Part shown: positions 4,466 through 59,349 of the stretch, one piece after another
How the letters are laid out: the number at the start of each line of letters is the position of its first letter
Numbering within the stretch: position 1 is the stretch's first letter
IMG/VR virus record: IMGVR_UViG_3300028115_001312
Span: 1-64,000 of that record
From: an uncultured virus (IMG/VR IMGVR_UViG_3300028115_001312)
Taxonomy: Duplodnaviria > Heunggongvirae > Uroviricota > Caudoviricetes
Length of the DNA stretch: 64,000 nt
Strand: one strand, 5' to 3'
Notes under the pieces: model-generated
Databases searched by the model: none
What the model saw: the letters and a program-made list of their open reading frames with translations, nothing else
Told to the model about the DNA's origin: nothing
Position numbers and translations under genes: made by a program

Positions 4466-4466
4466 A

Positions 4467-4715: not shown

Positions 4716-4725
4716 CTTTTTTCTC

Positions 4726-5250
4726 CTAAATCATGTTAAGTGCTAGTTCTGTAGTTTCATCTACTCGTCGAGTCCATCCTCTGCCAAATGTTTCAAATGT
4801 GCTAAGACTTTCATAGTATTCCTGTCTTGCTTGTTGAAAATTTGTTATGGTATCTGTTAATCCGTTTTCTTCTATATATTCATCTAATTTTTTAAGTGTG
4901 TTTGGACCAATGCCTCCGTCTGCAACTGTACCAATCATTGTTTGTAAGTATTTTGCACTACGTCCTGTACCTGCATTAACACCAAAATCAAAAACACATA
5001 AATCTAATCCTGCTGGTAATTGATCACCTTTCACTCTATCCCAATAGTTCTTTTTGTAAATTGGTGCAACATCTTCAACAATAAGATCACGCATATCTTT
5101 TTGTTCTATATCTTGTTCAGCACACCATGCTTCATAAACTTTTAGTGTAACACCTAAGTTAGTTTCACCACCTGGATCGCTTGGATGATTTACATATCCA
5201 CCTTCATGATGTAGTATTGTTTCTATACATTTATCGTAATTTTCTTGCAT
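4726..5250 (-). CDS. Glycoside hydrolase family 108 endolysin with peptidoglycan-binding domain
   Basis: HEGGYVNHPSDPGGETNLGVT, FDFGVNAG, ADGGIGPNT, FGRGWTRR. Confidence 0.92.
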   Translation of the reverse strand: MQENYDKCIETILHHEGGYVNHPSDPGGETNLGVTLKVYEAWCAEQDIEQKDMRDLIVEDVAPIYKKNYWDRVKGDQLPAGLDLCVFDFGVNAGTGRSAKYLQTMIGTVADGGIGPNTLKKLDEYIEENGLTDTITNFQQARQEYYESLSTFETFGRGWTRRVDETTELALNMI

Positions 5251-5253
5251 TGA

Positions 5254-5793
5254 CTATCTCTCTTTTGGTTGGTAAGGTTTGAATTGTTCTATATCGCCTT
5301 TGCTTCTTGGCACTCTTGCACTGTTTAGAATACTTTCCATTGTTGCTACTGCACGTTTAGCATCTCTATATTTTTTAGGACTAAGTGGAATAGATGATGC
5401 CAACTGTGTTTGTGTTAGAGGAAGTGTTGCATTTTTTCTACTTTCAGGTCTATCAAAATACATAAACTGCCAGTTTTCTACATCTGTAATATTTTTAAGA
5501 TCTTCAATTAGACCCATAAACTTTGCAGGATAATGTGTTCTACGTTCTGCTTCAACGAATACAATATACTTGCCTTCGCTTATTTCACCAGCACTAGTTT
5601 CTGCATCTATTACCCAGTCATATCCTTTTTCAATAAAACTTTCAAGATCCATTGCAGGTTGTTTACCAAACACTTTGAATGTTGCAACTATAATTGCATC
5701 ATCAGTTCCCATCTTAGGCTTGTATTCATCAAAGTGTACAGTTTCCTCAATACGACCTTCTAAATCCTGTTCATCAAGTGGCATCAAATTCAT
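5254..5793 (-). CDS. Hypothetical phage protein
   Basis: 179 aa ORF with typical codon usage, overlapping upstream gene. Confidence 0.7.
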   Translation of the reverse strand: MNLMPLDEQDLEGRIEETVHFDEYKPKMGTDDAIIVATFKVFGKQPAMDLESFIEKGYDWVIDAETSAGEISEGKYIVFVEAERRTHYPAKFMGLIEDLKNITDVENWQFMYFDRPESRKNATLPLTQTQLASSIPLSPKKYRDAKRAVATMESILNSARVPRSKGDIEQFKPYQPKER

Positions 5794-6301: not shown

Positions 6302-6987
6302 TACACAATCCTATCATATAACATATTTATCCATTCTATATGTGCAGACTCTTTAGGATGAGTTGTATAAAACTCCTGTTTTGTACGTTTTGCCCAGGTA
6401 AACATTCCTTCCTGGTCAATAAATTTTGACATATCTATATCAGCAATAAGTGTTTTAAGTGTTGTGTCTAATACTAATTGCGACTTAAAAATTGTATGAT
6501 CTACTGTCATAAAAACATATCTGATGTTATGTTTGATAAGATAATTTTGTAACATAACAATTTCACACCAGCTATTATATATTTCCCAATATGGGTCAAT
6601 TGCTATATTTTTGACATAATTGCCTACAAATTCTGTAATACCTTTAGAGTCTGCATTATCTGTATGTGTTTGATTTGTAAATGTTGGAGGTGTAAAAGGA
6701 TTAATACTATACCAAGGACTTTCACGTTGTCCTGTATCGTATGCAAATCTAAACTCATAACGATTAGGAAAACTCCACATAACTGCTACATAAATATCTA
6801 AGTCTTTATATTGATTTACTGCATTCATGACATTACGTCTAATAGCACTATTAGAGTAACCAGGTTTTGCAGTATTACAAATATTCCAACCTTTTCGTTT
6901 TGCTAGTAAATTTGCCCAGGTATGTTCTTGGCTTGGTAGTTCACTACCATATGTAAAACTATCTCCGCCTGCTATTAATACTGTCAT
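6301..6987 (-). CDS. SGNH/GDSL hydrolase-like protein
   Basis: GDSFTYG block I, G-x-SN block, C-terminal HP. Confidence 0.7.
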   Translation of the reverse strand: MTVLIAGGDSFTYGSELPSQEHTWANLLAKRKGWNICNTAKPGYSNSAIRRNVMNAVNQYKDLDIYVAVMWSFPNRYEFRFAYDTGQRESPWYSINPFTPPTFTNQTHTDNADSKGITEFVGNYVKNIAIDPYWEIYNSWCEIVMLQNYLIKHNIRYVFMTVDHTIFKSQLVLDTTLKTLIADIDMSKFIDQEGMFTWAKRTKQEFYTTHPKESAHIEWINMLYDRIV

Positions 6988-7736
6988 ATTTTAAAGATAT
7001 TATCCTTGTTTGCATTATCTAGAATTTCTCTTGTACGATCTGTCTTTAGTCCAGTCATTTGTAATACTGCTCGTGGATGACTACTAGCATTAGCAGTACA
7101 ATGTGGAACATTACTCCAATCAAATACATGTACCTCTCCGGCACGCCATCGATCGTACATACAGTTTCCGTACATATAAAAATGTCCAGGTTGCCAGTCA
7201 TCTAACATAATAGTTATTCGTACTACACGTTCTGGATCGTCTGGACATCTGTCCCATAATTTATCAATGTGCTTGTTAAACATTTGTCCAGTCATTTGTA
7301 TATGTGCTTGCCACTTTACTAAACTAACACCATCACTTGTAAGTTTAAAGTAATCCATCATTTTATATAATGTTGGATAATCTGACCAATCTGAAAAACT
7401 ATTTTTGTTAGTAAGAATTAATCCTTTTGGATCCCCGCCTGCTTGAGCAATATCATATTCTTCCTGAGTAAGCATTTCAGGATCTTTTTTCTTTTGTGCA
7501 AAATGTTTACGTGTTGACCAGTTTACAGGATGTGTTGCTTTGACAAGTCTATCACGTTCCGCTTTCCAATCTCCTTCGAATCTACCAATCACTTCAAACC
7601 AATCACCTGGTTGGTCTTGTATAGTGTCATCAAAATGGTAATCACTATGTGCAACAGTCCAATCCCAACTACTGGCATAGTCGTTAGGATCATCAAGTTT
7701 TTTGTTTACAAATTTTCTCATAATAAGTACATCCAA
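6984..7736 (-). CDS. 2OG/Fe(II) oxygenase, Asp/Asn beta-hydroxylase-like
   Basis: HID ... PHCTAN ... R facial-triad pattern in a DSBH-like C-terminal half. Confidence 0.6.
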   Translation of the reverse strand: MDVLIMRKFVNKKLDDPNDYASSWDWTVAHSDYHFDDTIQDQPGDWFEVIGRFEGDWKAERDRLVKATHPVNWSTRKHFAQKKKDPEMLTQEEYDIAQAGGDPKGLILTNKNSFSDWSDYPTLYKMMDYFKLTSDGVSLVKWQAHIQMTGQMFNKHIDKLWDRCPDDPERVVRITIMLDDWQPGHFYMYGNCMYDRWRAGEVHVFDWSNVPHCTANASSHPRAVLQMTGLKTDRTREILDNANKDNIFKI

Positions 7737-7990
7737 ATTAACATAGGAACTATTATCGCAAACTGTGGTAAAAAGTTAAGAATAATTGCACGTTCATTCC
7801 ATTTAAAACCAACATAAATCCACCCACTAGCACCTATCATTTGCAGTATGCTATTCCATGGAGTTACGCCTGCGACATGCAGTATCATAGCAATAAGTAT
7901 GACCACTGCACTCGCATATTTAACGTAAACTACGATGCCACTATTATTTTTGGGCAAGTAATGTATCCTTATACACAGCTTTAATTCCAA
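7718..7990 (-). CDS. Small multi-TM membrane protein downstream of tctC-like gene
   Basis: About three hydrophobic segments; start codon uncertain. Confidence 0.55.
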   Translation of the reverse strand: MELKLCIRIHYLPKNNSGIVVYVKYASAVVILIAMILHVAGVTPWNSILQMIGASGWIYVGFKWNERAIILNFLPQFAIIVPMLIWMYLL

Positions 7991-9005
7991 ATGCTTCGTT
8001 ATTAAACTTCACAAGTGTACTTAATGCTTCAGGTGTAATAAGTTTCATCAGTGTATCTCTATGAGCATCACCGGCATTGCCAATTAGCCATTGATACTTG
8101 CCAACTTTCTTTTCTACTGCACTGACACTTTCAGGATTTGTAGCAACTTGTTTTAATGCTGCGATTAGTTTCGCTTTATTTGGATTTCCTTTTCCAACCC
8201 ATAGTGCTTTTTGCATACCATCACGGAAACTTTTTACAAGTTTATAGGCGGCATATAAATCACCTTCTGGTTTTGTTCTATTTGCTGCATAGAATAATTG
8301 CTCCATTTGATATCCTGGATAATTTGGATCATCAGCATGTGAACCATCTGCTTGTAGTATCCCATGGTGAAACCATAATCCTGCAACGCCTTGTTCAATA
8401 GTAGGTTGAACATGTTTTTTAAAAGCAGCTGGATTTTCTCTAGTACCGTCTAGTTCGCCACGTTTAAATGCTAAACGTCTTTCGCCACCTGACATACCTT
8501 TTACCCAGTTTACTTTACGTTTGAAACAGTCAATGTATTGTTCTGTAGTAAGTCCTGCTCCACACTTTAGTAATGTCATTGCAATGCCTTCTGGAATCAT
8601 TCCACTACCAGCAGCAAAAGCAGTTTTCTTTCCACCGTATGGATTATGATCCTTACGTGATGCAACAATAATATTTAGATTCATTAATCCTACACTTTCA
8701 TAGTCGGCATAGTTGTAATCTACCTTTTCGTTTAAGAAACTTACACCATTACCACCATGAGATACCATTATTGTTTTTGGATCATTTTGGAGTTCATTGT
8801 GAAACTTGTTGAATCCAGGAATGTCTCTAGCACCTCTAATGTGTTTGATAACAATCTTTTCATCTAAATATTTTTCCATTTCTGTAGCCACGATCTGTGC
8901 CCACACACTTGTACCTCCTCCTGGCTTTTGTGGTACTATCATTGTATAATCAGCAAGTGCTGGTGTACTAAGCATTAAAAATAATGCAATTAAAAATTTA
9001 CGCAT
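7944..9005 (-). CDS. tctC: Tripartite tricarboxylate transporter substrate-binding protein (TctC/Bug-like)
   Basis: Signal peptide (PALA|D), IVPQKPGGGTS resembling the Bug IVPF.PGG.TD motif, GELDG; adjacent to TctA. Confidence 0.7.
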   Translation of the reverse strand: MRKFLIALFLMLSTPALADYTMIVPQKPGGGTSVWAQIVATEMEKYLDEKIVIKHIRGARDIPGFNKFHNELQNDPKTIMVSHGGNGVSFLNEKVDYNYADYESVGLMNLNIIVASRKDHNPYGGKKTAFAAGSGMIPEGIAMTLLKCGAGLTTEQYIDCFKRKVNWVKGMSGGERRLAFKRGELDGTRENPAAFKKHVQPTIEQGVAGLWFHHGILQADGSHADDPNYPGYQMEQLFYAANRTKPEGDLYAAYKLVKSFRDGMQKALWVGKGNPNKAKLIAALKQVATNPESVSAVEKKVGKYQWLIGNAGDAHRDTLMKLITPEALSTLVKFNNEAFGIKAVYKDTLLAQK

Positions 9006-10428
9006 AATCGATTTTTCCTTTCTTTATAAAACTATATGCAAAGATACCTATAATAAAAATAACTAATACCATAAATATCGGTCTTGTAATTAAACTTTCA
9101 ATGTCATACAAAGCAAACATCTGTATGGAAAGTTTTTCTATTTTTTCGGATAATATAAATCCTATTAGTAGAGCAGGTCTACTAAATTTGTAATGTCTGC
9201 AAACAAATCCTATGCAGGAAAATACAGCTAACATTACAAAATCTTCCCAGCCTCCTGTATACTGCATACTACTCCATACAATTACTGCTAGTAAAATAGG
9301 AAAATAATATTTGTAAGGGACACTGGTAATATAACTAATTGGCTTTATTAAAAATATACACAATATTGCAACTATAACTGTTGCACTTAAAAAGCCAAAT
9401 GTCATACTTGTAAAAAATTCTGTGTCGTAGGCTAAATCTGGTGTGCCTAATTCAAAATTTAGATACATAAACAAACTCATTAAAACTGCCGCAAACGGTG
9501 CACCTGGTATACCAAATAAAACTGTTGGAATCATACTTGTTGCTTTCTGTGCATTATTAGCACCTTCTGGTCCTATAACACCTTTAATATTGCCGTTACC
9601 AAAACGTTCATTTGGATTACTAGCGACTGCACTTCCGTATGCCATCCAATCTGCCATAGCACCTCCTAGTCCAGGCAGTAAACCTATAAAAGCACCAATA
9701 AAACCGCCTCGTAGTCCTAACCAACGATTACGCCAAAATTCTTTGACACCTTCTGTTAATTCGCTTTTTACAATAGTGGCAGTCTTAGTTCTATTGAACA
9801 GTCCTTTAATTAATTCTGGAATAGCAAATAGTCCTGCAACTACTGGCATAAGTTGTATACCATCTTCTAAATAAAACCAACTACCAGTAAAACGTGGCTC
9901 ATTTGTTTCTGGGTTAACTCCTACCATGCCTAAAAATATACCAATACAAATTGCACACAAACTACGGAACCAAAATTTTGTACTTATAAATCCAACTGTT
10001 GCTAGTGCAAGTACAGTAAATGCCCAAAGTTCAGGTACACCAATAATCATCAATAAGTTTGTATACCAAGGTAATAATAAGAACACTAAACAACCCCAAA
10101 TTAAACCATTTACTGTTGAAGTGGTAACGGCGGCACTGATTGCATAACTTGCTCTGCCTTGTTGTGCAAGTGGAAAGCCATCTACCATAGTAGCAGCGGC
10201 ACTGTTTGCTCCTGGTATTCCTAACAATATTGAAGTAAAACTATCGCCTGTGGTACTAGCAGCAACCACTGCCATTAAGAATACTACACCTAAATATGGT
10301 TCATGAACAAAGTAACTGATAAAACCAAACAGTGCAACCAAACCTGTAGTAGCACCTGCACTAGGTATTATGCCTATTAGTAATCCATATAGTACGCCAG
10401 CCATTAAAGCTGTAATCATTTCAATCAT
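8998..10428 (-). CDS. tctA: Tripartite tricarboxylate transporter permease TctA
   Basis: SILLGIPG...T..DGFPLAQQGRA, GLFAIPE, GLLPGLG, PEGANNA, GIPG repeats; many TM helices. Confidence 0.9.
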   Translation of the reverse strand: MIEMITALMAGVLYGLLIGIIPSAGATTGLVALFGFISYFVHEPYLGVVFLMAVVAASTTGDSFTSILLGIPGANSAAATMVDGFPLAQQGRASYAISAAVTTSTVNGLIWGCLVFLLLPWYTNLLMIIGVPELWAFTVLALATVGFISTKFWFRSLCAICIGIFLGMVGVNPETNEPRFTGSWFYLEDGIQLMPVVAGLFAIPELIKGLFNRTKTATIVKSELTEGVKEFWRNRWLGLRGGFIGAFIGLLPGLGGAMADWMAYGSAVASNPNERFGNGNIKGVIGPEGANNAQKATSMIPTVLFGIPGAPFAAVLMSLFMYLNFELGTPDLAYDTEFFTSMTFGFLSATVIVAILCIFLIKPISYITSVPYKYYFPILLAVIVWSSMQYTGGWEDFVMLAVFSCIGFVCRHYKFSRPALLIGFILSEKIEKLSIQMFALYDIESLITRPIFMVLVIFIIGIFAYSFIKKGKIDYA

Positions 10429-30231: not shown

Positions 30232-30320
30232 TGGCGGACAGTGTAGGATTCGAACCCACGGTACCTTTTGGGTACAACGGATTAGTAATCCGCCGCTTTA
30301 AGCCACTCAGCCAACTGTCC
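30232..30320 (-). tRNA. tRNA-Ser with anticodon ACT (unusual A34)
   Basis: GGACAGT acceptor, anticodon arm GCGGA-TTACTAA-TCCGT, long variable arm GTACC-CAAAA-GGTAC, GTTCGAATC, G73 plus CCA. Confidence 0.9.
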
Positions 30321-32113: not shown

Positions 32114-33265
32114 TTACATATTAACTTCATAGAAGTCAATACTTTCTTCAATTAATTCATCTTTTGATTTAAAGATTACTTTATTTTGGTACTTTTCTGT
32201 AAGTATTTTTTTAAATTCTGTAGGCAAGTATTTACTTGGATTTACATATACTGTATTGCCTAGTTCTAAAAGTTTACAACAACATTCAAACTGCTGACTT
32301 TCATCAGTAATAGTTACTCCTGGCTTGTATGTAACGTAATCAAAATAGTAAGGGTTTTCATCTACATTTTCACCAATAAGATAATCTGCTAGAAATTTGC
32401 TATGATCATTGTTGAATTTATCTACAATATCACCAAACACATAATCACTATCTATACTACGTGCATAAGCAACCATTGCTCTATTATCTCTAGGTAGACA
32501 CGGTCCGCCAAATCCAAAACCAAAACCTAGATCCATATCATTGAACCTATTAATAGCACTGTCTATCTCTTGTAGATCTTCAGCAACTCCAGATTGTATT
32601 GCCAGTTCACCTATTTGGTTATAAAAACTAATACGTAAAGTCATCAAGCAATTAAAAGTTAATTTTAGTATTTCTGCAGTGGTTTGATTTACTATACTTA
32701 AAGGAGCATTGTTCTTTTGAATCTTACTCCAAATCTTTTGGCACTCTTTACCAATATCTATATGCTCTGTACCAAATAATACACCAGGCGGATTATATAT
32801 TCTGTCTATTACATTTCCTTGTGCAACGAAAGTAGGACTGTATACAACCTTGACACCAAGAGGAGTTAACATATTTTGTATACGTTTTGTATCTCCTGGA
32901 TTCATTGTGCAACCTATTATTAATTTTCTGTTACGTACATCACCTTCATAATTTAGAAAGTCTTTTGCTACTGTTTCTACTGCACTAATATCATAGTTTC
33001 CTGCAGGTAGACTAGGTGTTGGCACCATAACATAAATGTATTCACATTGAGTAATTACTCTATAGTTATCTGTTGTAAAAATAATATTTTTGCTATTTTG
33101 TAGTCTGTCTTTAATGCCAGGCTCAACTGTATCTACAATTTTATTCTGTAGCAATTCAACATATTCCTGTTTATAACTACTTGCAAATACATTAAATCCT
33201 GATTCTTCAAACACTAATGCATAAGATAAACCTAGTTTGCCTACGCCTATTATACCAATGTTCAT
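32114..33265 (-). CDS. ugd: UDP-glucose/GDP-mannose dehydrogenase family
   Basis: GVGKLG, EPG, VPTP, AEILKL..N, GFGFGGPCLPRD, YKP. Confidence 0.85.
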   Translation of the reverse strand: MNIGIIGVGKLGLSYALVFEESGFNVFASSYKQEYVELLQNKIVDTVEPGIKDRLQNSKNIIFTTDNYRVITQCEYIYVMVPTPSLPAGNYDISAVETVAKDFLNYEGDVRNRKLIIGCTMNPGDTKRIQNMLTPLGVKVVYSPTFVAQGNVIDRIYNPPGVLFGTEHIDIGKECQKIWSKIQKNNAPLSIVNQTTAEILKLTFNCLMTLRISFYNQIGELAIQSGVAEDLQEIDSAINRFNDMDLGFGFGFGGPCLPRDNRAMVAYARSIDSDYVFGDIVDKFNNDHSKFLADYLIGENVDENPYYFDYVTYKPGVTITDESQQFECCCKLLELGNTVYVNPSKYLPTEFKKILTEKYQNKVIFKSKDELIEESIDFYEVNM

Positions 33266-35256: not shown

Positions 35257-36312
35257 CTATTTAAATAAATTAGCACTTATATTCTGTTGGTACATTTGAT
35301 TGTAAAAGTCAATTGATGCTACTTGTTTGAACTTGCTTTCACACATAATGTCAAATTCTTTGTTAAATTGTATTGCCCATTCATTAACTGCAGAATTCCA
35401 GTACATGTCACTGTGGGCTCTTAGTTTAGCTTTTTTGTAATTGTCTTCAAGTAGAGTATTGTAATTAGGTTTTGTTATTGAACAATGATCAACTAGGTAA
35501 TCTTCTCTGCTGACACTGTAATGTATGACAGGCCTTACACCTCGCCAACTGTCTTTTATGCGAGATACTCTTTCGTCCAGGGGCGAGATGTATTCACCCG
35601 TTTTAACCCAGTGGTGGTGTATATCGAGAACGAGGGCACAGTGTTCCGTAAGTTCGAGACTCGCATCCAGTCCCCATGAATTCTCATCATTCTCGATTGT
35701 AAGGACATTTCTCGATTCCGGAGAAAGTCTTGGGAGGATTGAAATGATGCCTTGTGGACCTTTTCTACCTGCGATATGTACGTTGCATTTGGCGTCCTGG
35801 AAGGACTTGCCATATCCCATGTACCTGAGGACATCGGTGTGATATTCATATTCTTCTATGCTCCTATCAACAATATCTGGATTATCGCTTGCAAGCACAG
35901 TAAACTGACCAGGGTGCATACTAATCCGTACATCAAGAGCACGAGCTTTATCCCCGACAGGTGCAAGATGTGTTTCGAGATACTGGCGTACATCAGGTAA
36001 CTGCCAATAGTAACTCCAACTAGACTCAGTGTAAGCAGGCAATATGCTACTGCCCAATCGAACCATTCGTAACTCATTAGGTAAACTCCCTACGTAAGTA
36101 ATTAGTCTTTCAACACTTTTAATATTGTGTTGCATAATATCCCACAAACGTTGTTCTGCAACTTCTTTAGTCTGTCTGTTAAGCCATGTAATAGTTGTAG
36201 TACGTTCATTAAGTGGACGTTCTATTTCTTCTAACTGTTTTTTCTTTAGTGTACGGTCTGGATGAAAATACTTACATGCAAACCCAATACGATGTATACT
36301 GTTATCAAACAT
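35257..36312 (-). CDS. uvsE: UV damage endonuclease UvsE/UVDE
   Basis: RIGFACK, RLGS, SMHPGQFTVLAS, NVH, IENDE, LDIHHH, HYS, AHSD, MCESK. Confidence 0.92.
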   Translation of the reverse strand: MFDNSIHRIGFACKYFHPDRTLKKKQLEEIERPLNERTTTITWLNRQTKEVAEQRLWDIMQHNIKSVERLITYVGSLPNELRMVRLGSSILPAYTESSWSYYWQLPDVRQYLETHLAPVGDKARALDVRISMHPGQFTVLASDNPDIVDRSIEEYEYHTDVLRYMGYGKSFQDAKCNVHIAGRKGPQGIISILPRLSPESRNVLTIENDENSWGLDASLELTEHCALVLDIHHHWVKTGEYISPLDERVSRIKDSWRGVRPVIHYSVSREDYLVDHCSITKPNYNTLLEDNYKKAKLRAHSDMYWNSAVNEWAIQFNKEFDIMCESKFKQVASIDFYNQMYQQNISANLFK

Positions 36313-36355
36313 ATACTTAATATAGCATATAAACTAGGTATGTCAACCTATCAAA

Positions 36356-36412
36356 CCGTCAATTTTTTGTACCAAAAATCGGTACAAATTATTGTTCCGT
36401 CAATTTTTTGTA
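36356..36412. repeat. 16-bp direct repeat CCGTCAATTTTTTGTA x2 with overlapping inverted repeat
   Basis: Copies at 36356-36371 and 36397-36412; TTTGTACC/GGTACAAA inverted repeat. Confidence 0.8.
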
Positions 36413-36523
36413 TCGCTGGAAAATACGACAAACAACCTATAAATATTTGTATAAATTTATTAAAAGAGAGGCTTACATAAATATTATTACATATGACAAT
36501 ATTGTCTTACAAAGAGAGAATCT

Positions 36524-37069
36524 ATGATTAGAAAAATATTTATTTACAGCCTAGCTGTATTCTTCATTGGCATGGCTAATGCAGAAACAATAGTAACAGA
36601 AAGCACAACGAACAGTAAAATTATTACTGAAGGAAATATGGAAACAACTGTAAAATCACCACCACCGAGTGCTATTAGTCCGCAGTTTAGTAGTGGCAGT
36701 AATAGTGATTTATGTACAATTGGTGTTGCCGGTGCAGTACAAACACAGATATTAGGTATAAGTGCAGGTACTACATTTACAGAAGACAACTGTATAAGAT
36801 TAAAAAATGCAAAGACACTATATGACATGGGCATGAAAGTTGCTGCAGTTAGTGTAATGTGTCAGGATAAGAAAGTATTTGATGCTATGATGATGGCAGG
36901 TACACCATGTCCTTATGAAGGTAAAATTGGAGAGGCAGCCAAGATTGGTTGGGAATCACACGAAGATAAAAAGAAACATGAAAAGAACGGTAAGGAAGAA
37001 CAAGTAGATGTTAAAAAAGCTGCTACTTGGAGTATTGGTGGGATTTTATCCCTACTATTGTTACTCTGA
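36524..37069 (+). CDS. Exported Cys-containing protein with hydrophobic C-terminal tail
   Basis: Signal peptide ANA|E; four Cys; ends WSIGGILSLLLLL. Confidence 0.75.
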   Translation: MIRKIFIYSLAVFFIGMANAETIVTESTTNSKIITEGNMETTVKSPPPSAISPQFSSGSNSDLCTIGVAGAVQTQILGISAGTTFTEDNCIRLKNAKTLYDMGMKVAAVSVMCQDKKVFDAMMMAGTPCPYEGKIGEAAKIGWESHEDKKKHEKNGKEEQVDVKKAATWSIGGILSLLLLL

Positions 37070-37901
37070 TAACATTGCACCATATTATGGTACGACTGGT
37101 AATGCTGCTCAAAGCGGACACAGTTGGAGTATGAAAGATGTACTACCTGCACCACCTGGCTTAGATATTAATGGAGTATTTTATAGATACACTGCAAATA
37201 AAAATCCTGAAGATGATATGAAAGTTCATGTACAAAATAAAAATGCAAACGGTACTGGATATGTTTTTAGAGATACAGAAGACTGGTCAGGTGCACCAGG
37301 AGGAATAGAAGTTAGAAAGGTTATTGGAATAGGTGATATCCCTAGAGAAGCATGGGGAGATGGTTCTATAGAAGTAGAGGGTACAGGTACTGTAGATGAT
37401 GCGAGTGTTATCTACAGTTACAAAGTTGATCCTTGTTATGACCCACAATTTAGTCCAAGTTGTCCAGGGTATAAGACACCAGTGCCTGTTGTACCTACAG
37501 TTAATCTAGATGATTTATATGATGCTACAAAAGATGAGTTTGTTAATTTAAACGATGAGGAAAAATTATCTATAGAAGAAAATGAAGAAAGACTAGCTGA
37601 GGAAGAAGAAAAAGAAAAAGAAGAAGCTGAAGAAAAGAAGAGAAAGTATAGATTAGAAAAATTAATGTCAGCATCTGATACTGCAGCACTTTTTGCAGAA
37701 AATCAAAGAATAGAACAAATGAATAATATTATGCAAAATCAGATTAATAATACGTATCTTGCCGCAACTATACCAGGTGGTCAGTACAAAGAAACAATTA
37801 GATTGGTAGATGCTAAACTACCAGATAGCAAAGCCGGGTTGAGAAACGGCTTAGCACAACAGATATTGCATGAGAAAATGATTTCTCAGCAATACAAATA
37901 G
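37008..37901 (+). CDS. Exported protein: beta-rich domain, Cys pair, charged coiled coil
   Basis: Signal-like N-terminus; DPCYDPQFSPSCPGY; E/K-rich helix. Confidence 0.75.
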   Translation: MLKKLLLGVLVGFYPYYCYSDNIAPYYGTTGNAAQSGHSWSMKDVLPAPPGLDINGVFYRYTANKNPEDDMKVHVQNKNANGTGYVFRDTEDWSGAPGGIEVRKVIGIGDIPREAWGDGSIEVEGTGTVDDASVIYSYKVDPCYDPQFSPSCPGYKTPVPVVPTVNLDDLYDATKDEFVNLNDEEKLSIEENEERLAEEEEKEKEEAEEKKRKYRLEKLMSASDTAALFAENQRIEQMNNIMQNQINNTYLAATIPGGQYKETIRLVDAKLPDSKAGLRNGLAQQILHEKMISQQYK

Positions 37902-37910
37902 GAGAGAAAA

Positions 37911-38414
37911 ATGCTCAAAAAGGCAAGTATAATAGTTGCTATGAGTTTATTCACATTATCAGCACAAGCTGTTGATGTACCAATAAGTGGAACTGTGCAA
38001 TCACGTTGTGTAATAACAACTGATACACCAGGTACATATGGAAACCCAAATGCTTATACACTAACAACAGCTGCCGCCGACGGTGGTGTACAGCCTATTG
38101 TAAGATATGATGTAACATTGGCTGATGCTTATTATGCACAAATTACTACACCAACTTCATTTAGTACTAGCCCGTCACTTAATGATACAGTATCATGGAC
38201 AGGCTCTACAGAAGTTAGTAGCGTAAGTGATGCAACAGGCATGGCAGGTTATGAAAGTGCAAAGACAGTATCTGGACAAACTACACAGTTTGATCTAACC
38301 GCAACTGGTTCTACATGGTTTAAGTCTACTTCGGTTGCTACAAATGGTGGAAACAAAGCATTTCCAGGTGGTAACTATTCAGCAACAATTGAAGCGGTGT
38401 GTGTAGCAAAGTAA
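37911..38414 (+). CDS. Exported fimbrial-subunit-like (pilin-like) protein
   Basis: AGGAG SD; signal AQA|V; ISGTVQSRC near N-terminus; Thr/Ser/Gly-rich beta strands; C-terminal G.Y.A strand. Confidence 0.6.
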   Translation: MLKKASIIVAMSLFTLSAQAVDVPISGTVQSRCVITTDTPGTYGNPNAYTLTTAAADGGVQPIVRYDVTLADAYYAQITTPTSFSTSPSLNDTVSWTGSTEVSSVSDATGMAGYESAKTVSGQTTQFDLTATGSTWFKSTSVATNGGNKAFPGGNYSATIEAVCVAK

Positions 38415-38798
38415 ATGTATAAATATTTTATAACATTATGGTTGATTCTGTTTTCTCATGGTGCTTTTAGTCATGAGATGACTCCAACTTATCCTAAATG
38501 GAGTTATGCATATATGGATGATTTAATTGTCACCCGTATGCAAATTTTCAATAAAAGGAATGATGTTGAATATTATGAGATAGGAGTGTTCGATAAAGAC
38601 TGGAGACCTATTCCATTTGTATCTCAATATACAATATTGAATATAAAATATTTGGAACGTGCAGAAGTAGATGTTTATATTAGAGAAGTTGACAAATACA
38701 ATGCTGAATACGTATGTAGTAGGTCAAAGATGAGGAATGAGGATTTAAAATCTTCAAGTATATCATCTAAAATATGTTCTAGATTCAAGCATGAATAG
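38415..38798 (+). CDS. Exported protein resembling a single-domain pilus chaperone
   Basis: Signal AFS|H; MTP..., IFNKR...YEIGVFD..W..IPF Ig-like pattern; Cys pair. Confidence 0.5.
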   Translation: MYKYFITLWLILFSHGAFSHEMTPTYPKWSYAYMDDLIVTRMQIFNKRNDVEYYEIGVFDKDWRPIPFVSQYTILNIKYLERAEVDVYIREVDKYNAEYVCSRSKMRNEDLKSSSISSKICSRFKHE

Positions 38799-38800
38799 GT

Positions 38801-39232
38801 ATGAAAAAATTTGTATTTACAACACTAACACTTACAGTTTTATCTAGCACAGCATTCGCCAATAGCAGTTCATTAAATCTTCAATTACCAAACGCATCGG
38901 GTAATTATTCTAGCGATAAATTTAAAGCAGGCGATTTAGATTGCCAAAATGCTATTGGTGGTAGTACCAATTTGGAATTTGGTGTGACTGGTATAATAGA
39001 CAACTATCAAAGTCCTTTTGACGACAATACAACTATAGGCAACAGTACTAAGGATGTTGGAGTATATGCAAGAATCACAATACCGCTTGACGGTCCTAAA
39101 GAACGTATTAACTGTAACACACTCTATCAATTAGAATTAAAGAAGAAAAGATTGGAAGTTTTAAAATTAGAGCAAGAACTTAAAAAGTTAAGAGAATTAC
39201 AAAGCCAATCTAAACAAGGTTTGGAGAAATAA
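38801..39232 (+). CDS. Exported protein with amphipathic beta hairpin and C-terminal coiled coil
   Basis: Signal AFA|N; NLEFGVTG and VGVYARITIPL strands; Cys pair; LELKKKRLEVLKLEQEL. Confidence 0.72.
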   Translation: MKKFVFTTLTLTVLSSTAFANSSSLNLQLPNASGNYSSDKFKAGDLDCQNAIGGSTNLEFGVTGIIDNYQSPFDDNTTIGNSTKDVGVYARITIPLDGPKERINCNTLYQLELKKKRLEVLKLEQELKKLRELQSQSKQGLEK

Positions 39233-39233
39233 C

Positions 39234-39767
39234 ATGGCAAAAGATTTAGGTGAAGAAATTGAAAACATGGAAGAAGGTATAGAGAACTTAAAGAATAAAC
39301 AGTTCCGTATCCTTGGCTTCAAAGTTAGTTTTATGTCAATATCTGCTCTTATTGCAGTTATTGGTAGTGTACTTGGTGCATTGTATGGTGGCTTTTTAAT
39401 GTATCAAAAAGTAGAACAGGCTATAGAATTTGTAGAACAACAAGAAGAATACGAAGCAAAAATCAATGCATATGACAAACGTATGCAAATCATGGAATCC
39501 AAAATGGAAGACACTGTAGAATATACACGTGACATCAAAGGCGGGTTGCGTGATGATATACTACGTATTGAACAACAAGCAGACAGAACAGAAGACATGG
39601 TTCGTAAAAGTGTGGACGATGTCCGTAACATGATAACTGATGCCGAAAGTAGATTTGAAACTAAAAGAGATAGTTTGAGAGAAACAGTGAATCGTGATAC
39701 TAAAGAACTAGAAGATAGACTTATGCGTAAAATACAACGGGCATTAGACAATCCGTTAGCAAATTAA
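39234..39767 (+). CDS. Membrane-anchored coiled-coil protein
   Basis: GGAG SD; one TM helix then long coiled coil ending ALDNPLAN. Confidence 0.72.
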   Translation: MAKDLGEEIENMEEGIENLKNKQFRILGFKVSFMSISALIAVIGSVLGALYGGFLMYQKVEQAIEFVEQQEEYEAKINAYDKRMQIMESKMEDTVEYTRDIKGGLRDDILRIEQQADRTEDMVRKSVDDVRNMITDAESRFETKRDSLRETVNRDTKELEDRLMRKIQRALDNPLAN

Positions 39768-41137
39768 TAAGTTCCACTATAATTGGCTAAAAAATGTGTA
39801 AGATCTTCAGGTGTACCTAATCCCCACATTCCTTCTGGATTAATATGCTTAATCCTTACTTTACCTCCACCTTGTATAAATTCATTAAACACAGGACATA
39901 CATAAAATTCGTTATTAGTTCTAATGTTCTTATCAATCATCTGAAGTGCAGAACTAACGTAATCACAACCACGTGCCCAATAATAGATACCAACAGTGGC
40001 GTTAATCGAAATAGGTTGTTTTTCAGCAACTTGGGTAACCCATCCATTTTGGTCTGTACGTGCATAACTCCATTTTGGATGTGTGCTTTCAAACGTGAGG
40101 ATGCCACCTCCCACGCCCTCTGTTGAAAATGCATAAAGGACTTCGTTTGAGTTCCATTCGACGAATTGGTCCGAGTTCGCGATGATGAGCGGGTCTTCAT
40201 TGTCTATATACTCCTTTGCTAAAAGCGTTGTACAGGCAGCGCCTTCAGTTACACCTTCAACTTGTACAATGGTACAATCAGGTTTTACTAGATTTAAAAC
40301 TGTTTCTAAATTATACTTTTCGTAATGTTCTTTTTGCACTATAAAAATGTAGTTTGCTTCAATATTTAAATTGTCTACTACAACTTGTATCATAGGCTTA
40401 TTACCTACTTCTATAAGAGGTTTAGGAAATGTGTATCCTTGTTCAGCAAATCTACTTCCTGCACCTGCCATTGGTATTAGTACATTCATTTTTTTACTCT
40501 TCCATGGTATATTACGTTTAGGTTCTTCATATTCTTCTATAGCATCTAGCACTTTGCTCAAGTAAATATCTTTAGTATCCTCTACTGCTAGTAAATTTGC
40601 ACCACTATCTAATACTGCTTGTCTACCTATATGACTGTCTTCTATTATAAGTGTTTCGCTAGGCTTACAGTTTGCAGTAAGCATACATTTAAAATACATT
40701 TCAAAGTGTGGTTTAGGTTTTTCAACATCTTCATTACTATACCAAAAATCAAAATATTCTATAAGGTTTAATTTAAGCAAACTCATTTTTACTGTGTCGC
40801 GAACTGCATTGCTTGCACAGGCTAGTGTATAACCTCTGTCTTTCAACTCGCGACACATGTCCGTAAAATCGTCTCGAGGTTCAACAGTCTCTTTTAGTAT
40901 ATCAACTGTTGCCTTTTGTTTGGCCCTGGCGATTGACGCATGACGATCCGTGGGCAAGCCTTTACGTTCTGATAGCATATTTAATTTGGACCTGGTAGGC
41001 AAACCATCATAGTTTGCTAAATGTTCTTCTATACTAATGGCATACTCATCACCCAAAGCACGGTTAAGAGCTTCGTAATGAATCTGCTTGCTATCTATAA
41101 GGACACCATCTAAGTCAAATATGACTAATTTAATCAT
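39764..41137 (-). CDS. HAD phosphatase fused to nucleotidyltransferase (NTP transferase)
   Basis: FDLDGVL, KPKP, IEDS..G; then IPMAGAGSRF, PKPLIEV, GAACT, NSDQ, EK, NEFYV, LGTPEDL. Confidence 0.88.
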   Translation of the reverse strand: MIKLVIFDLDGVLIDSKQIHYEALNRALGDEYAISIEEHLANYDGLPTRSKLNMLSERKGLPTDRHASIARAKQKATVDILKETVEPRDDFTDMCRELKDRGYTLACASNAVRDTVKMSLLKLNLIEYFDFWYSNEDVEKPKPHFEMYFKCMLTANCKPSETLIIEDSHIGRQAVLDSGANLLAVEDTKDIYLSKVLDAIEEYEEPKRNIPWKSKKMNVLIPMAGAGSRFAEQGYTFPKPLIEVGNKPMIQVVVDNLNIEANYIFIVQKEHYEKYNLETVLNLVKPDCTIVQVEGVTEGAACTTLLAKEYIDNEDPLIIANSDQFVEWNSNEVLYAFSTEGVGGGILTFESTHPKWSYARTDQNGWVTQVAEKQPISINATVGIYYWARGCDYVSSALQMIDKNIRTNNEFYVCPVFNEFIQGGGKVRIKHINPEGMWGLGTPEDLTHFLANYSGTY

Positions 41138-48830: not shown

Positions 48831-49970
48831 TTATCCTAGTATTGTACAAATTTTTCCTGCTAAGTTAATAAAGAAATCTTCTTTATGACCTTTTGTAGTT
48901 TCAGCGGCAGTGCCTATTCTTATACCACTTGTTTCTACAAAACTACGTGGATCATTTGGTACACCATTTTTATTAACAGTAATACCATTTTCTTCCAGTA
49001 AGTCTGCAGCTTGTCTACCACTATGCTTACTTTTGCTTAAATCCATTAATATAATATGACTATCTGTGCCACCTGTTTGTACAGGAAAACCACGTGCTTC
49101 AAATACCTCGCACATTACTTTTGCATTTTTGATCACTTGGTGTGCATACTGTTCAAAACTAGGAAGTAATGCTTCACTGTAACATTGTGCTTTTGCAGCA
49201 ATTATGTTCATAAGTGGTCCACCTTGTGTGCCTGGAAATATTGCACTATTAATACGTTTGCACCATTTAGGATCATCCCATAAGATCATGCCACCTCTAG
49301 GTCCACGAAGTGTTTTATGTGTAGTGCTTGTCACTACATCTGCATAACCAAATGGACTATCATATACTTGACCAGCGACTAGTCCACTATAGTGTGCCAT
49401 ATCAACTAATAATATTGCACCTACACTGTCAGCAATTTGTCTAAATGCACTCCAATCTATCTGTCTTGGATATGCACTTGCTCCTGCAACAATTAACTTA
49501 GGCATATTAAGTTTTGCAATACCTTCTATTTTATCGTAGTCAAGTAAACCATTATCATCAACACCATAAGTGACTGCATTGTAAAACTTACCACTTAGAG
49601 TAGGAGGTGCACCGTGTGATAAGTGTCCGCCACTTGCTAGATCCATACCCATAAGTACATCACCAGGTTTCATAAATGCTTGATAAACTGCAGTGTTTGC
49701 ATTTACACCTGAATGTGGTTGCACGTTTGCATACTCACAACCATAAAGTTCGCAAACTAAATCTATTGCAAGTTGCTCAACCTCATCCATATACTCGCAA
49801 CCATTATAGTAACGTTTACGTGGATAACCTTCTGCATACTTGTTAGTAAAAATACTACCACACAAGTCCATTACTGCTTGACTTGCATAGTTCTCACTAG
49901 CAATTAATTCTATAGTTGTATCTTGTCTTAGTTGTTCTTTGTCTAGTATTAACTTTATGTCTTCATACAT
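48831..49970 (-). CDS. glyA: Serine hydroxymethyltransferase
   Basis: LIASENY, NKYAEGYP, GGHLSHG, TTHKTLRGPRGG, FPGTQGGP. Confidence 0.96.
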   Translation of the reverse strand: MYEDIKLILDKEQLRQDTTIELIASENYASQAVMDLCGSIFTNKYAEGYPRKRYYNGCEYMDEVEQLAIDLVCELYGCEYANVQPHSGVNANTAVYQAFMKPGDVLMGMDLASGGHLSHGAPPTLSGKFYNAVTYGVDDNGLLDYDKIEGIAKLNMPKLIVAGASAYPRQIDWSAFRQIADSVGAILLVDMAHYSGLVAGQVYDSPFGYADVVTSTTHKTLRGPRGGMILWDDPKWCKRINSAIFPGTQGGPLMNIIAAKAQCYSEALLPSFEQYAHQVIKNAKVMCEVFEARGFPVQTGGTDSHIILMDLSKSKHSGRQAADLLEENGITVNKNGVPNDPRSFVETSGIRIGTAAETTKGHKEDFFINLAGKICTILG

Positions 49971-54145: not shown

Positions 54146-55180
54146 TTACTTCTTAAGCATGTCTGCAGTAAGCACTGGTAATTCTTTCATTGCTTTAGCA
54201 TACTTTGCTCTTTCTTCTTTTGGCATTGGAATCATACCAGCATCAGATAATATGCCTTCTTCGTTCCAATTCTTTTTCCAACTAACCATATACTCTTCGA
54301 TACCAGGTACAACACCTATGTGCTGATGCTTGACATAAAAGAACAAGGCTCTTGAAACTGCATAGTCACCATCTGCAATTGCTTCAAATGTTGGCTCACC
54401 ACCATCTATGATTGCACCATTGAGAGTATCACTGTTTTGATCTAGGTAACTGAAGCCAAAAATACCATAAGCTGTTGGATCTTCAATTAACTTTTGTACA
54501 ATCAAGTTGTCCTGTTCACCTGCTTCAATGAATGCACCGTCAGTTCTCATGGCTCTACACTTTTTGCCTTTTTTATCACCTCTTGCTTTAGATGCTGCTT
54601 TTGCAATTTTGTCTTTGCCACAATAACCTTTTTGATTTACCATTTCTGCATAACTTGCTCTTGTACCTGAAGTTGTTGGTGGCCCATAAACTCTAATGTC
54701 CAAATTAGGAAGTGCAGGATTTATATCACTCCACTTTTTGTATGGATTGTCTATCCATGTTCCGTCTGCTTGTGGTATTTTTGCAGTTAGTGCTCGTGCT
54801 AAATCTGCTTTACTAATGTTTAATTGAATACCTTTTTTACTGCTTGCAACAACAATACCATCATAACCTACTTTAATTTCAGTTACCTTTACACCGTTCT
54901 TTTCACAGTATTCTAATTCTTTTGTTTTCATTCTTGAACTTGCATTTCCAATGTCTATGAACTGTGTTCCTACACCATCACATACACCTTTCTTACCAAC
55001 ACTACTACCACCTGATTCTACAACTGGTGTTGGTATACTTGGATTCTTTCCTACTTGTTCAGCGATTATTCTCGCAAATGGAAGTACAGTACTTGAGCCT
55101 GCAATACTTAACTGATCTCTCGCAACTGCCACATTAGAAGCCATTGCTAATGCTACTAATGCAATTAACATTTTATACAT
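54146..55180 (-). CDS. pstS: Phosphate-binding protein PstS
   Basis: Signal peptide, GSSTVLP, GGSSVG, ASSR, GYDGI, SGTR, GFSY, Y..SR.LFFY. Confidence 0.93.
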   Translation of the reverse strand: MYKMLIALVALAMASNVAVARDQLSIAGSSTVLPFARIIAEQVGKNPSIPTPVVESGGSSVGKKGVCDGVGTQFIDIGNASSRMKTKELEYCEKNGVKVTEIKVGYDGIVVASSKKGIQLNISKADLARALTAKIPQADGTWIDNPYKKWSDINPALPNLDIRVYGPPTTSGTRASYAEMVNQKGYCGKDKIAKAASKARGDKKGKKCRAMRTDGAFIEAGEQDNLIVQKLIEDPTAYGIFGFSYLDQNSDTLNGAIIDGGEPTFEAIADGDYAVSRALFFYVKHQHIGVVPGIEEYMVSWKKNWNEEGILSDAGMIPMPKEERAKYAKAMKELPVLTADMLKK

Positions 55181-56287: not shown

Positions 56288-56962
56288 TTATATACCTATC
56301 TTTCCACTACATGTATAATAATAAAAATCATCATCTGCACAACAAAAGAAGTCTCCTACGAGATAGAAAAACTTACTTTGTGTTAGGTAATGGTCAAATA
56401 AGTCTATTAATGGATTCCTATATTCTAGTGTAAACTGTACTGCTTTATCATCTTCAGTTTTAAACCAATGATTGTATTTTATTTCAGGACCGTATCTTGT
56501 AGTAGTGCTTCTTAGGTATTCTACTTTAAGTTTTTTACCATAAATGGTCATGTTAAAAGGAGTACTAGTATCACAAAGATCTTGTATTTCTTTTTTTACT
56601 ATATCCTGTATATAAAATTCTGGTAATTTTGTAAGCATGCCTACTTCAGTAAAATGCACTAAATGTTTGCTTTCTCTTTCTAGTGCCTGTTGTAAATGTT
56701 TCCTAAAAGTTGAGAAATGATATTCTTTTTTAAAAGTTCCTAAGAATAGGTTTTGCTTATAAAATTTACGAATATCTTCTGCACGTTCTAAATAATCACC
56801 TTGTGCAATTATTTCTTTTGTACGTGTAGCATTATCTATGTCTTTTAAGTCAACATGGTAATCTGTGCCTTCATTTCTTATTATGGCTATTGCTATAGGA
56901 TCATGATTAAATTCTATAAAACCGTCTTGTCCTGGTTGTAAAAACTCTAGTTGTTCCTGCAT
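56288..56962 (-). CDS. Hypothetical protein
   Basis: 224 aa; coupled to guaC. Confidence 0.65.
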   Translation of the reverse strand: MQEQLEFLQPGQDGFIEFNHDPIAIAIIRNEGTDYHVDLKDIDNATRTKEIIAQGDYLERAEDIRKFYKQNLFLGTFKKEYHFSTFRKHLQQALERESKHLVHFTEVGMLTKLPEFYIQDIVKKEIQDLCDTSTPFNMTIYGKKLKVEYLRSTTTRYGPEIKYNHWFKTEDDKAVQFTLEYRNPLIDLFDHYLTQSKFFYLVGDFFCCADDDFYYYTCSGKIGI

Positions 56963-58083
56963 TACTCATATACTCTATTGTGTGTATCCTGACAACGAAT
57001 AAATGTTGTACATTTAGGTAAGTGTTTTAATTTTTCTGCACCCACATATGTACATGCACTACGTAAACCACCTAGCATGTCCTGCACTGTGTTTGTAATA
57101 GCACCTTTGTATGGCACCAATACTTCTCTACCTTCGCTTGCACGGTAGTCTTTAAGCCCTCCAAAGTGCTTTGTATTGGCAGCATCACTGCTCATGCCAT
57201 AAAACTGTACAAAATGTTTTTCTTCATAAACTGGCTCAAGCCATCCTTTATCATCTTTAAGGACTTCGTTAGTTTCATAAACTTTAGTAATTACTTCACC
57301 GCCACCTTCATCGTGTCCAGCAAGCATACCACCTAGCATAACAAAATCTGCACCACCAGCGAATGCTTTTGCTACATCACCAGGGCAAGTACAACCTCCA
57401 TCAGCAATAATGTGTCCACCTAATCCATGAGCTGCATCAGCACATTCCATTACTGCACTTAGCTGTGGATAACCTACTCCTGTTTGTATACGAGTTGTAC
57501 ACACACTACCAGGTCCTATACCAACTTTTACTACATCTGCACCACGAAGTATCAACTCCTGTGTTTGATCTGCGGTTACTACGTTTCCTGCAATAATGAC
57601 TAAACCAGGATATTCTTCTCTGATACTTGCAACATAGTTTAGGAAACGTTCACTATATCCATTTGCAACATCAATACATACATACTTAATACCTTTACTA
57701 CCTGCATATACTGCCCTAAACTTACTAGCATCATCTTCTGTGATGCCCATGCTATATGCTACATGTTCTCTTGCAATTGTACTTGTGTTAAAGAAATCAA
57801 CTAATTCTTTTATACTGTATGTTTTTACAAGGCAAGTAAACAAACCAAGTTTGCCCAGTGCTTCTGCCATATCAAATGTACCCACACCATCCATGTTAGC
57901 AGCCATAATTGGAACTGCATTAAAATCATAATCTCTTTGTGTGTTTATAGGGTAACTTGGATTGTAATTTCTAAAACTGTGTCTACGTGTAAGTTGTACT
58001 TCTTTACGTGAACCTAGTGTGCTACGTTTAGGACGCAACAGAACACTATTGTAATCTAACTTGACTTCATTCTCGATATTCAT
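56962..58083 (-). CDS. guaC: GMP reductase
   Basis: [47 protein letters not shown]. Confidence 0.95.
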
Positions 58084-58462: not shown

Positions 58463-58900
58463 TTACTTGTTAATTGTAATTTTACGAGGCTTCTTCTCTT
58501 CTGGAACTATTCTTTCAAGTTCAATGAAAAGCATACCATTTTCAAGTTTAGCATCTTGAACAACGATATCATCATTTAGTGTAAACTTACGAGTAAACTT
58601 TCTACGTGAAATACCTCTGTGTAATATTTCACCAGCAAAGTTATTTTCATCAAGTTCTACTGGATTATGGCTAATTGTCATAACATTTTCTGCTACTTCA
58701 ATGTCCAAGTCTTCCATTTTTACACCTGCTAGAGCCATTTCAATTTGAAATTTATCTCCGTCTCTTACAATGTTGTAAGGTGGATAGCCAGTACTCTGAG
58801 TCTGATGTTCAACATAGTTAAACATATTATCAAAGATTCTGTCGAATCCGACGGCATATGGTGTAAGTTTATTGATATCGAGTGAGGTTAATCTTGTCAT
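58463..58900 (-). CDS. Small heat-shock protein (Hsp20/IbpA-like)
   Basis: VGFDR.F, YPPYNI, EMALAG, LHRGIS.R.F, ENGML, PEEKKPR.I.I. Confidence 0.93.
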   Translation of the reverse strand: MTRLTSLDINKLTPYAVGFDRIFDNMFNYVEHQTQSTGYPPYNIVRDGDKFQIEMALAGVKMEDLDIEVAENVMTISHNPVELDENNFAGEILHRGISRRKFTRKFTLNDDIVVQDAKLENGMLFIELERIVPEEKKPRKITINK

Positions 58901-59115: not shown

Positions 59116-59349
59116 CTAATAATTTTCTATTTCACGTTGTTTTTTTAACCATCTGGCTCTACCCGCCGCTTTTGCTTTAGCACGTTTTTCGCTAGGCTTA
59201 ACATAATACTTACGTTTCCTCATTTCTAAAATAATGCCTTCATCCTGCATTAATCTTTTTAGTTTGCGAATTGCACGAGAAACATCATTGTTTCTTACTT
59301 GGACATATAGTCCTTGTTTTTCTCTAGTTGGTCTTTGTGGTCTTGCCAT
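59116..59349 (-). CDS. rpsU: Ribosomal protein bS21
   Basis: VQVRNNDVSRAIRKLKR..EG..EMRKRKYYVKPSEKR. Confidence 0.88.
   Translation of the reverse strand: MARPQRPTREKQGLYVQVRNNDVSRAIRKLKRLMQDEGIILEMRKRKYYVKPSEKRAKAKAAGRARWLKKQREIENY

Follow-up and report, generated by a model that had tools for sequence, protein, structure and literature searches.

What would a lytic phage do with a run of genes whose products look as if they were meant for the envelope of its host? The question is raised by six consecutive genes, here called A to F, in a 64-kb stretch of DNA (the window) from the IMG/VR virus record IMGVR_UViG_3300028115_001312 (75,429 bp; CheckV completeness 22%). An earlier note, made from the letters of the window alone, had likened these genes to a fimbrial system of exported proteins that lacks an usher and is carried by a phage. 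The IMG/VR record and the T4-type genes in the window (clamp loader, baseplate wedge proteins, PhoH, MazG, and Hsp20) confirm the phage origin; the window is also rich in host-like metabolic genes. The six genes are:

36524..37069, plus strand: gene A, 181 aa; signal-like N-terminus, conserved four-cysteine core, and C-terminal hydrophobic tail (GGxGxLxLLLLL)
37008..37901, plus strand: gene B, 297 aa; signal-like N-terminus, Cys143-Cys152 in a beta-rich N-terminal part, and acidic middle
37911..38414, plus strand: gene C, 167 aa; signal-like N-terminus, predicted immunoglobulin (Ig)-like beta-sandwich, Cys33-Cys164, and N-terminal extension at 21-32
38415..38798, plus strand: gene D, 127 aa; signal-like N-terminus, predicted single PapD-like domain (chaperone N-domain / MSP), and Cys101-Cys121
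38801..39232, plus strand: gene E, 143 aa; signal-like N-terminus, Cys48-Cys105 staple, two amphipathic strands, and C-terminal heptad helix
39234..39767, plus strand: gene F, 177 aa; predicted bitopic inner-membrane protein (N-terminus inside), hydrophobic at about 26-56, with a predicted periplasmic coiled coil whose length varies and a QxxLxNPL end

The six plus-strand open reading frames (ORFs) were correctly located by the earlier note, and their tight coupling is evident from the spacings between successive genes, which are -62, 9, 0, 2, and 1 nt from A to F. Our tentative answer, which we hold as possible rather than probable, is that they form a late-expressed, phage-only envelope cassette, associated with lysis, which may use half of the logic of chaperone-usher assembly.

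We took as a comparison set 79 IMG/VR viral loci that encode a relative of C, and ran all six proteins against them by tblastn. C was found in all 79 loci, D in 78, B and E in 77 each, F in 76, and A in 70; most of the misses fall at the ends of the fetched DNA, and the order A-B-C-D-E-F is invariant. The genes that flank the cassette in the window seldom recur in this set (UvdE in eight loci, the HAD-NTP transferase in two). Since the order is kept while the flanks change, the cassette is a conserved unit that moves between genomic contexts, and its gene arrangement is far beyond chance. The earlier note had expected the genes to occur together elsewhere, and in these 79 loci they do. It had also described a plus-strand island in a minus-strand region; this is accurate for the window, where genes on both sides of the cassette are on the minus strand and the GC skew is positive only across 36-40 kb, but it is not a general trait, as most of the 17 related loci in which flanking strands were compared have flanking ORFs on the same strand as the cassette.

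The family is large and nameless. A search with C gave 1759 candidates, of which 1663 cluster representatives have E<=0.001, and every one of the 120 relatives of C listed is named “hypothetical protein”. No functional name was obtained for any cassette protein from Pfam, NCBIfam, PHROG, or other sources among the matches listed: A to E had no Pfam match at E<=1 except one at chance level for B, and no NCBIfam match except, again at chance level, for B (E 0.2), while F gave low-scoring coiled-coil matches far below the cut-offs. Four of the six proteins match PHROG families, all of unknown function. Searches of PDB sequences with the profiles of A, C, D, and E returned nothing below E 0.4, and tblastn of C against 50,697 phage records gave no match.

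We also checked whether the cassette occurs outside phages. Six loci encoding E were found in bacterial or archaeal “genomes”, all of them metagenome-assembled genomes (MAGs) assigned to Saprospiraceae, Rhodobacteraceae, a Methanobacteriota archaeon, Polaribacter, and Gammaproteobacteria; wherever the DNA reaches, neighbouring cassette genes accompany E in these loci. They are most likely mis-binned phage contigs, because the taxa are incompatible, the cassette genes come along, and one bin has four copies, and a bacterial origin was rejected on these grounds. The bin with four different copies of E (on contigs C64, C76, C105, and C121) is labelled Rhodobacteraceae, and the MAG labelled “Methanobacteriota archaeon” also has the cassette. 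Among 400 Gammaproteobacteria genomes scored with the E profile, one contained it, and that one is the MAG on which this search was centred.

The six genes do not, as the earlier note had supposed, make up a single system, since either half can be found alone; the cassette consists of two separable modules, C-D-E and A-B-F. Vibrio phage Brizo (MK895508) has C-, D-, and E-like ORFs in the same order, at 4139-4609, 4594-5001, and 4917-5294, and their relationship to the cassette is supported by hhalign (C, gp138: 91%, E 1e-6; D: 71%, E 4e-5; E: 97.7%, E 2e-12); the profiles of A, B, and F had no match in Brizo. The trio is followed by an overlapping gene for a 67-aa lipoprotein and then by a holin and an M15 endolysin. 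By tblastn, 42 T5-like Vibrio phage records match E. Similarly, a distant T4-like contig has C-D-E followed directly by a gene-32 protein on the opposite strand, with no F. The other module is seen in the Pelagibacter podophage HTVC115P, where gp54 corresponds to A (E 1.5e-48) and gp49 to F (E 9e-25); gp53 is B-like by eye (acidic middle and an ...ELVDMQYR end), a resemblance that the profile search did not score. The profiles of C, D, and E had no match in the 10-kb region of HTVC115P that was searched.

Two further observations concern these cultured phages. The annotated starts of Brizo gp139 (4699-5001) and gp140 (5091-5294) are apparently too late, as the longer ORFs at 4594-5001 and 4917-5294 include signal peptides and match D and E; the 67-aa lipobox ORF, gp141 (5242-5445), overlaps the end of the E-like gene in the way that overlapped spanin genes do. 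In HTVC115P, the region around the F homologue (6788-8152) encodes two small coiled-coil proteins with one transmembrane segment each (127 aa and 69 aa) and a very basic 45-aa protein, which sit between tail-fibre-like genes and a gene for a 685-aa Gln/Asn/Ala-rich protein; the annotation calls all of them hypothetical.

The N-termini of A to E, read by eye, are basic, then hydrophobic, then small-x-small, and we infer from this that their products are exported. The signal peptides and cysteine pairs that the earlier note had ascribed to five products are thus upheld as signal-like N-termini and conserved cysteines in A to E. Within C-D-E, the cysteines 101 and 121 of D are invariant (rows with an internal stop were omitted from the alignments, namely those of L016 for D and of L012 and L032 for E). 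The structural model of D (predicted local distance difference test, pLDDT, 80.5) was used in a structural search, and the 28 best-ranked rows include the chaperones SafB (8.0), YadV (7.6), PapD (7.3), FaeE (7.3), CfaA (7.0), CsuC (6.9), and CupB2 (6.8), each matching D over its first chaperone domain only; unrelated Ig-like domains score as high, for example the exo-chitosanase domain at 8.4. Foldseek gave PapD (TMq 0.51), DraB (0.45), and an only-Cu superoxide dismutase (SOD; 0.50), and the nearest Pfam-bearing cluster in the ESM Atlas is PapD_N (0.83), which the tool itself grades as a lead only. The model of D is thus folded like the N-terminal domain of a chaperone-usher chaperone, in agreement with the earlier likening of D to a one-domain periplasmic chaperone. 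When 1.84 billion representatives were searched exhaustively with a profile of D, only 165 relatives emerged, all of at most 181 aa, so D is a family of its own that is always single-domain. One distant member, P0250, reaches PapD_N at E 0.0096, below the cut-off. As for the surroundings of distant relatives, a context scan of P0252 yielded only another six-gene locus, and one of P0267 returned nothing.

C, the presumed partner of D, has a mean column identity of 69% and is surpassed in conservation only by A. The sequence features first noted for it are all present: a Shine-Dalgarno-like AGGAGAG at 37900-37906 ahead of the gene, the segment ISGTVQSRC, and a C-terminus (GGNYSATIEAVCVAK) whose last strand, G-G-N-Y-S-A-T-I-E-A-V-C-V, contains the G-x-Y motif. 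Cys33 and Cys164 are invariant, and a disulfide between them would join the first and last strands. The AlphaFold model (pLDDT 83.3) is a beta-sandwich from 33 to 167, with residues 21-30 unplaced at a pLDDT of about 60. These unplaced residues belong to the mature N-terminus, VDVPISGTVQSRC, which has alternating hydrophobics, with a small residue in the fourth of the alternate positions, and then a cysteine; read by eye, the window, Brizo, and the distant T4-like contig all conserve the pattern hydrophobic-x-hydrophobic-x-small-x-hydrophobic-x-S-x-C, and the N-termini of the Fim pilins share the alternating hydrophobics, the small residue, and the cysteine. We therefore regard C, as modelled, as an Ig-like subunit whose conserved N-terminal strand is free. 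In the structural search, residues 30-167 align to complete sandwiches and the closest scores belong to MSCRAMM, CBM, and Gram-positive pilin domains; the similarity is to MSCRAMM DEv-IgG domains and to CBM2 and CBM3 sandwiches. Foldseek found nothing at E<=0.001, and its weak list (E 0.03-0.07) mixes MSCRAMM adhesins with the PapG pilin domain, AggA, FimG, FimF, CsuA/B, and CsuE. No chaperone-usher pilin is among the best 50 rows of either structural listing, and the SCPU domain (PF05229) had no match to C at E<=1.

The remaining partner in C-D-E, E, has the two amphipathic strands (NLEFGVTGII and VGVYARITIPL) and the coiled-coil heptad helix attributed to it by the earlier note, as borne out by a beta-moment analysis and by the alignment; the most beta-amphipathic 10-mers are at 85-97, and cysteines 48 and 105 are invariant. 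It matches phrog_37374, of unknown function; its neighbours in the ESM Atlas are unnamed viral clusters only, and profile searches of Pfam and PDB gave no named relative. In the other module, A has four invariant cysteines (64, 90, 113, and 129) among 61 invariant columns and matches phrog_20531 (E 8e-15; unknown function). B combines a Glu-rich acidic middle with a conserved C-terminal LAQQxLHxxMxxxQY; its Cys143 and Cys152 are conserved in at least 90% of sequences, and Cys18 lies inside the signal peptide. F has no cysteine, a heptad-rich remainder after its hydrophobic stretch, and an invariant NPLAN-type C-terminus; its relatives range from 144 to 236 aa, with the length of the coiled coil varying, and its best PHROG match is phrog_18138 (unknown function, E 0.004).

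If C and D were a pilin and its chaperone, an usher of about 800 aa would be expected in the classical pathway. We searched five records in six frames: the record of the window, three complete carrier genomes (328, 173.5, and 152.7 kb), and Vibrio phage Brizo. The usher family PF00577 was found in none of the five at E<=1, with an E. coli control that matched, and neither was the SCPU domain at the same threshold, so the absence of an usher asserted by the earlier note holds for the three complete genomes as well. Two ORFs of the window exceed 800 aa, one with a He_PIG domain and one with a baseplate/tail-fibre connector match.

The cassette can now be set beside known systems. Like the chaperone-usher pili (FimC-FimA/FimD, PapD-PapK/PapC, SafB-SafA, FaeE, and CfaA; also the archaic CsuC-CsuA/B), it has a gene for a putatively exported Ig-like subunit followed by one for a protein with the predicted fold of a chaperone N-domain, and the two have in common an alternating N-terminal strand in the subunit, a C-terminal G-x-Y strand, and periplasmic disulfides. 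Unlike them, it has no usher; D is one domain of about 108 mature residues rather than two; its sequences show no resemblance to PapD_N, Fimbrial, or SCPU; the disulfide of C would join the first and last strands, whereas that of Fim pilins lies between strands A and B; and there is a single subunit gene, in lytic phages, with a late-promoter word. The cassette resembles at most half of a chaperone-usher pathway in its working and, judged by sequence, is not a member of that family. The MSP and VAP domains, also of the PapD-like superfamily, are eukaryotic and cytosolic, whereas D is probably exported and disulfide-bonded, and has no sequence similarity to them. Two-component spanins (Rz/Rz1) offer another comparison: like F, they include a bitopic protein with its N-terminus inside and a periplasmic coiled coil, and in many phages the cassette adjoins spanins, holin-like genes, and endolysins; however, the cassette contains no lipoprotein partner and no spanin PHROG, and canonical spanins coexist with it in five of five records. 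In the literature searched, titles and the openings of abstracts contain no description of such a phage cassette.

When the cassette is used is suggested by the DNA upstream of A and by the neighbouring genes.

36438..36445, plus strand: T4-type late-promoter word TATAAATA, 86 nt upstream of A

We take this word to be the T4 late-promoter consensus. Of 56 distinct upstream regions, 34 have it in the 250 nt before A, with 0.04 expected per 250 nt. Several of the 22 upstream regions without it carry CATAAATA instead or have A abutting the preceding gene; where the word is missing, A often comes straight after lysis genes. This distribution suggests late expression of the cassette. Contigs from four metatranscriptome libraries match it, one bridging B-C-D over 894 nt with no differences and others bridging C-D-E over 815 and 772 nt, but such libraries can contain DNA and the bridging contigs are weak evidence; no contig runs over 36205-36405, which carries no proof either way.

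To identify the neighbours of the cassette, we compared 147 ORFs in the flanks of 14 loci with PHROG, then ran tblastn over the 79 loci and confirmed the domains:

signal-peptide-bearing Hydrolase_2 wall hydrolase near the cassette: 31 of 79 loci
Rz-like spanin pair near the cassette: 15 of 79 loci
Phage_lysozyme near the cassette: 7 of 79 loci
CHAP lipoprotein near the cassette: 6 of 79 loci
tail-anchored phrog_32327 protein near the cassette: 34 of 79 loci
class-3 lipase near the cassette: 7 of 79 loci

A wall hydrolase or a spanin lies within 6 kb of the cassette in 52 of the 79 loci, which are not 52 independent events because the loci share ancestry; the hydrolases are of three unrelated types, and partners and positions differ between loci. 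The phrog_32327 protein, of about 157 aa, is amphipathic in its N-terminal part and ends in one hydrophobic tail (for example L040:4136-4609 and L010:8896-9381), which makes it a candidate holin or lysis regulator; the record of the window has no phrog_32327 match. The lysis cluster of the window itself is on the minus strand at 3406-5250. It comprises a GH108 endolysin (4726-5250) that includes a PG_binding_3 domain, an i-spanin-like ORF with a coiled coil (3635-4135), and, overlapping this ORF, a match to the o-spanin family phrog_812 (3406-3759).

We also considered whether the cassette replaces the spanins. The canonical o-spanin (phrog_812) is present in five of five carrier records, this record included, so the cassette is not a stand-in for spanins, and this candidate was rejected. 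Neither E nor F matched a spanin PHROG, and there is no lipobox ORF on the plus strand of 36400-39900.

The late-acting envelope cassette that we tentatively favour would work as follows. After export by Sec, D would bind C through beta-strand augmentation, in the manner of PapD-like and MSP domains with their partners, and would hand it over at the outer membrane to E in oligomeric form; A (tail-anchored and cysteine-rich), B (acidic), and F would form a periplasmic scaffold anchored in the inner membrane. The assembly would act on the envelope late in infection, beside the lysis enzymes, rather than as a classical adhesive fimbria. Several results weigh against this. No sequence link joins C, D, or E to the chaperone-usher families (Pfam, E<=1): PF00345 finds nothing in the record at E<=10, D has no Pfam match at E<=1, and D (as an alignment of 34 sequences) against FimC gives an hhalign probability of 0.1%, where the controls are as low (D against Fim pilins 3.3%, C against FimC 0.3%). 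C against FimA, FimI, FimF, and FimG does reach 56%, but over 33 columns that comprise the signal peptide and the N-terminal extension only. In addition, the first mature residue of D is a histidine in at least 90% of the 34 sequences (with the pattern H-x-x-[GST]-P in distant members), and no chaperone model explains this near-invariant residue. Finally, in the window the cassette lies 31 kb from the endolysin and spanins of the phage, which shows that the association with lysis genes, though common, is not a requirement; the shared ancestry of the 79 loci tempers it further.

Four other explanations draw on the same evidence. In the one closest to the earlier note, C polymerises into a surface fibre by donor-strand exchange with D as its chaperone, a barrel of E replaces the usher, and the fibre serves adhesion, aggregation, or exclusion. 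The PapD-like fold of D, the Fim-like N-terminus of C with its 33-column alignment, the pilins in the weak Foldseek list, the amphipathic strands of E, and the missing usher all agree with such a fibre. We nevertheless consider it unlikely: C fits complete sandwiches better and brings up no chaperone-usher pilin among the best 50 rows of either listing, the cassette has a single subunit gene, which is strongly conserved, the Cys33-Cys164 disulfide departs from the A/B disulfide of Fim pilins (invariant cysteine columns 44 and 84), and a pore made from two-strand hairpins is pure conjecture. A late promoter and lysis neighbours would also leave little time for an adhesive organelle, and because of the late-promoter word and the repeated link to wall hydrolases, spanins, and a lipase, adhesion or aggregation, proposed by the earlier note, is unlikely as the main role. 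A more radical version, usher-independent donor-strand assembly in lytic phages, would have D prime C while E, as a 120-residue protein supplying one transmembrane beta-hairpin and a coiled coil, oligomerises into an outer-membrane conduit, giving a fibre or coat on the dying cell; we think this distinctly unlikely. The sandwich of C might instead bind a ligand and, matured by D and set at the outer membrane via E, cover the receptor of the phage or a glycan of the envelope, which would spare progeny from loss on debris and on infected cells nearby, or would exclude other phages. This too seems improbable, given that the exclusion proteins Imm and Sp of T4 and Llp of T5 are early genes, that no receptor or ligand is known for the cassette, and that the cassette is kept across phages with different neighbouring tail genes.

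The proximity to lysis genes could also mean that the cassette is an accessory machine for breaching the envelope, in which F and E bridge the periplasm as spanins do and, together with the other four proteins, help to destroy or open the outer membrane when the cell lyses. In its favour are the i-spanin-like topology of F, whose coiled coil varies in length among relatives of 144-236 aa, the heptad helix at the C-terminus of E, and the spanins, wall hydrolases, and lipase found next to the cassette; in Brizo, the E-like gene overlaps the 67-aa lipoprotein gene upstream of the holin and endolysin. The canonical o-spanin is nonetheless present in every one of the five carriers, and spanins are adjacent in 15 loci; F and E lack a spanin PHROG, the cassette lacks a lipobox ORF, and C-D-E is found without F and F without E. 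Such a machine is accordingly not a probable solution, and we would place it among the unlikely ones. The N-terminal histidine of D raises a last alternative, that the likeness to chaperones is that of Ig folds in general and that a histidine brace holds a metal such as copper, with a redox or metal role on envelope polymers; PCuA and the only-Cu SOD do appear in the fold lists of D, level with many Ig-like domains. We regard this as very unlikely. D has no further conserved histidine, and no second histidine or methionine ligand beyond M22 in the close group; leucine replaces the N-terminal histidine in two members, Brizo and P0250; there is no Pfam match to the CopC, YcnI, or LPMO families; and chaperone N-domains outnumber metal proteins among the top fold rows.

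Whatever its exact role, the cassette is very common among uncultured marine phages, with T4-like genomes of 150-330 kb, and its halves occur in T5-like Vibrio phages and Pelagibacter podophages. If D does act as a half-chaperone, viruses have taken over the strand-complementation principle by which pili are built and dispensed with the usher; if the usher-independent assembly exists, it would be a new secretion or assembly route, with an outer-membrane barrel built from single hairpins. Should the association with lysis genes prove functional, a further and widespread component, beyond holin, endolysin, and spanin, would take part in the lysis of Gram-negative hosts by phages or in the hours around that event. 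The cultured carriers (Vibrio phage Brizo and its relatives, and HTVC115P) give direct experimental access to these questions.

A few other features of the window were recorded. Near the cassette are genes for a UDP-glucose dehydrogenase (32114-33265) and UvdE (35257-36312), and on the minus strand at 39764-41137, convergent with the end of F, a gene for a 457-aa fusion of a HAD phosphatase and a nucleotidyl-transferase. The host-like genes encode a TctA transporter subunit (8998-10428), a PstS-like phosphate-binding protein (54146-55180), serine hydroxymethyltransferase (48831-49970), an IMPDH/GMP-reductase family enzyme (56962-58083), ribosomal protein S21 (59116-59349), Hsp20 (58463-58900), and a ClpB-like AAA protein truncated at the edge of the window (2-1177). 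ARAGORN identified a tRNA-Ser with the unusual anticodon ACT at 30232-30320 (minus strand); the other tRNAs of the window are tRNA-Arg(ACG) and tRNA-Thr(TGT).

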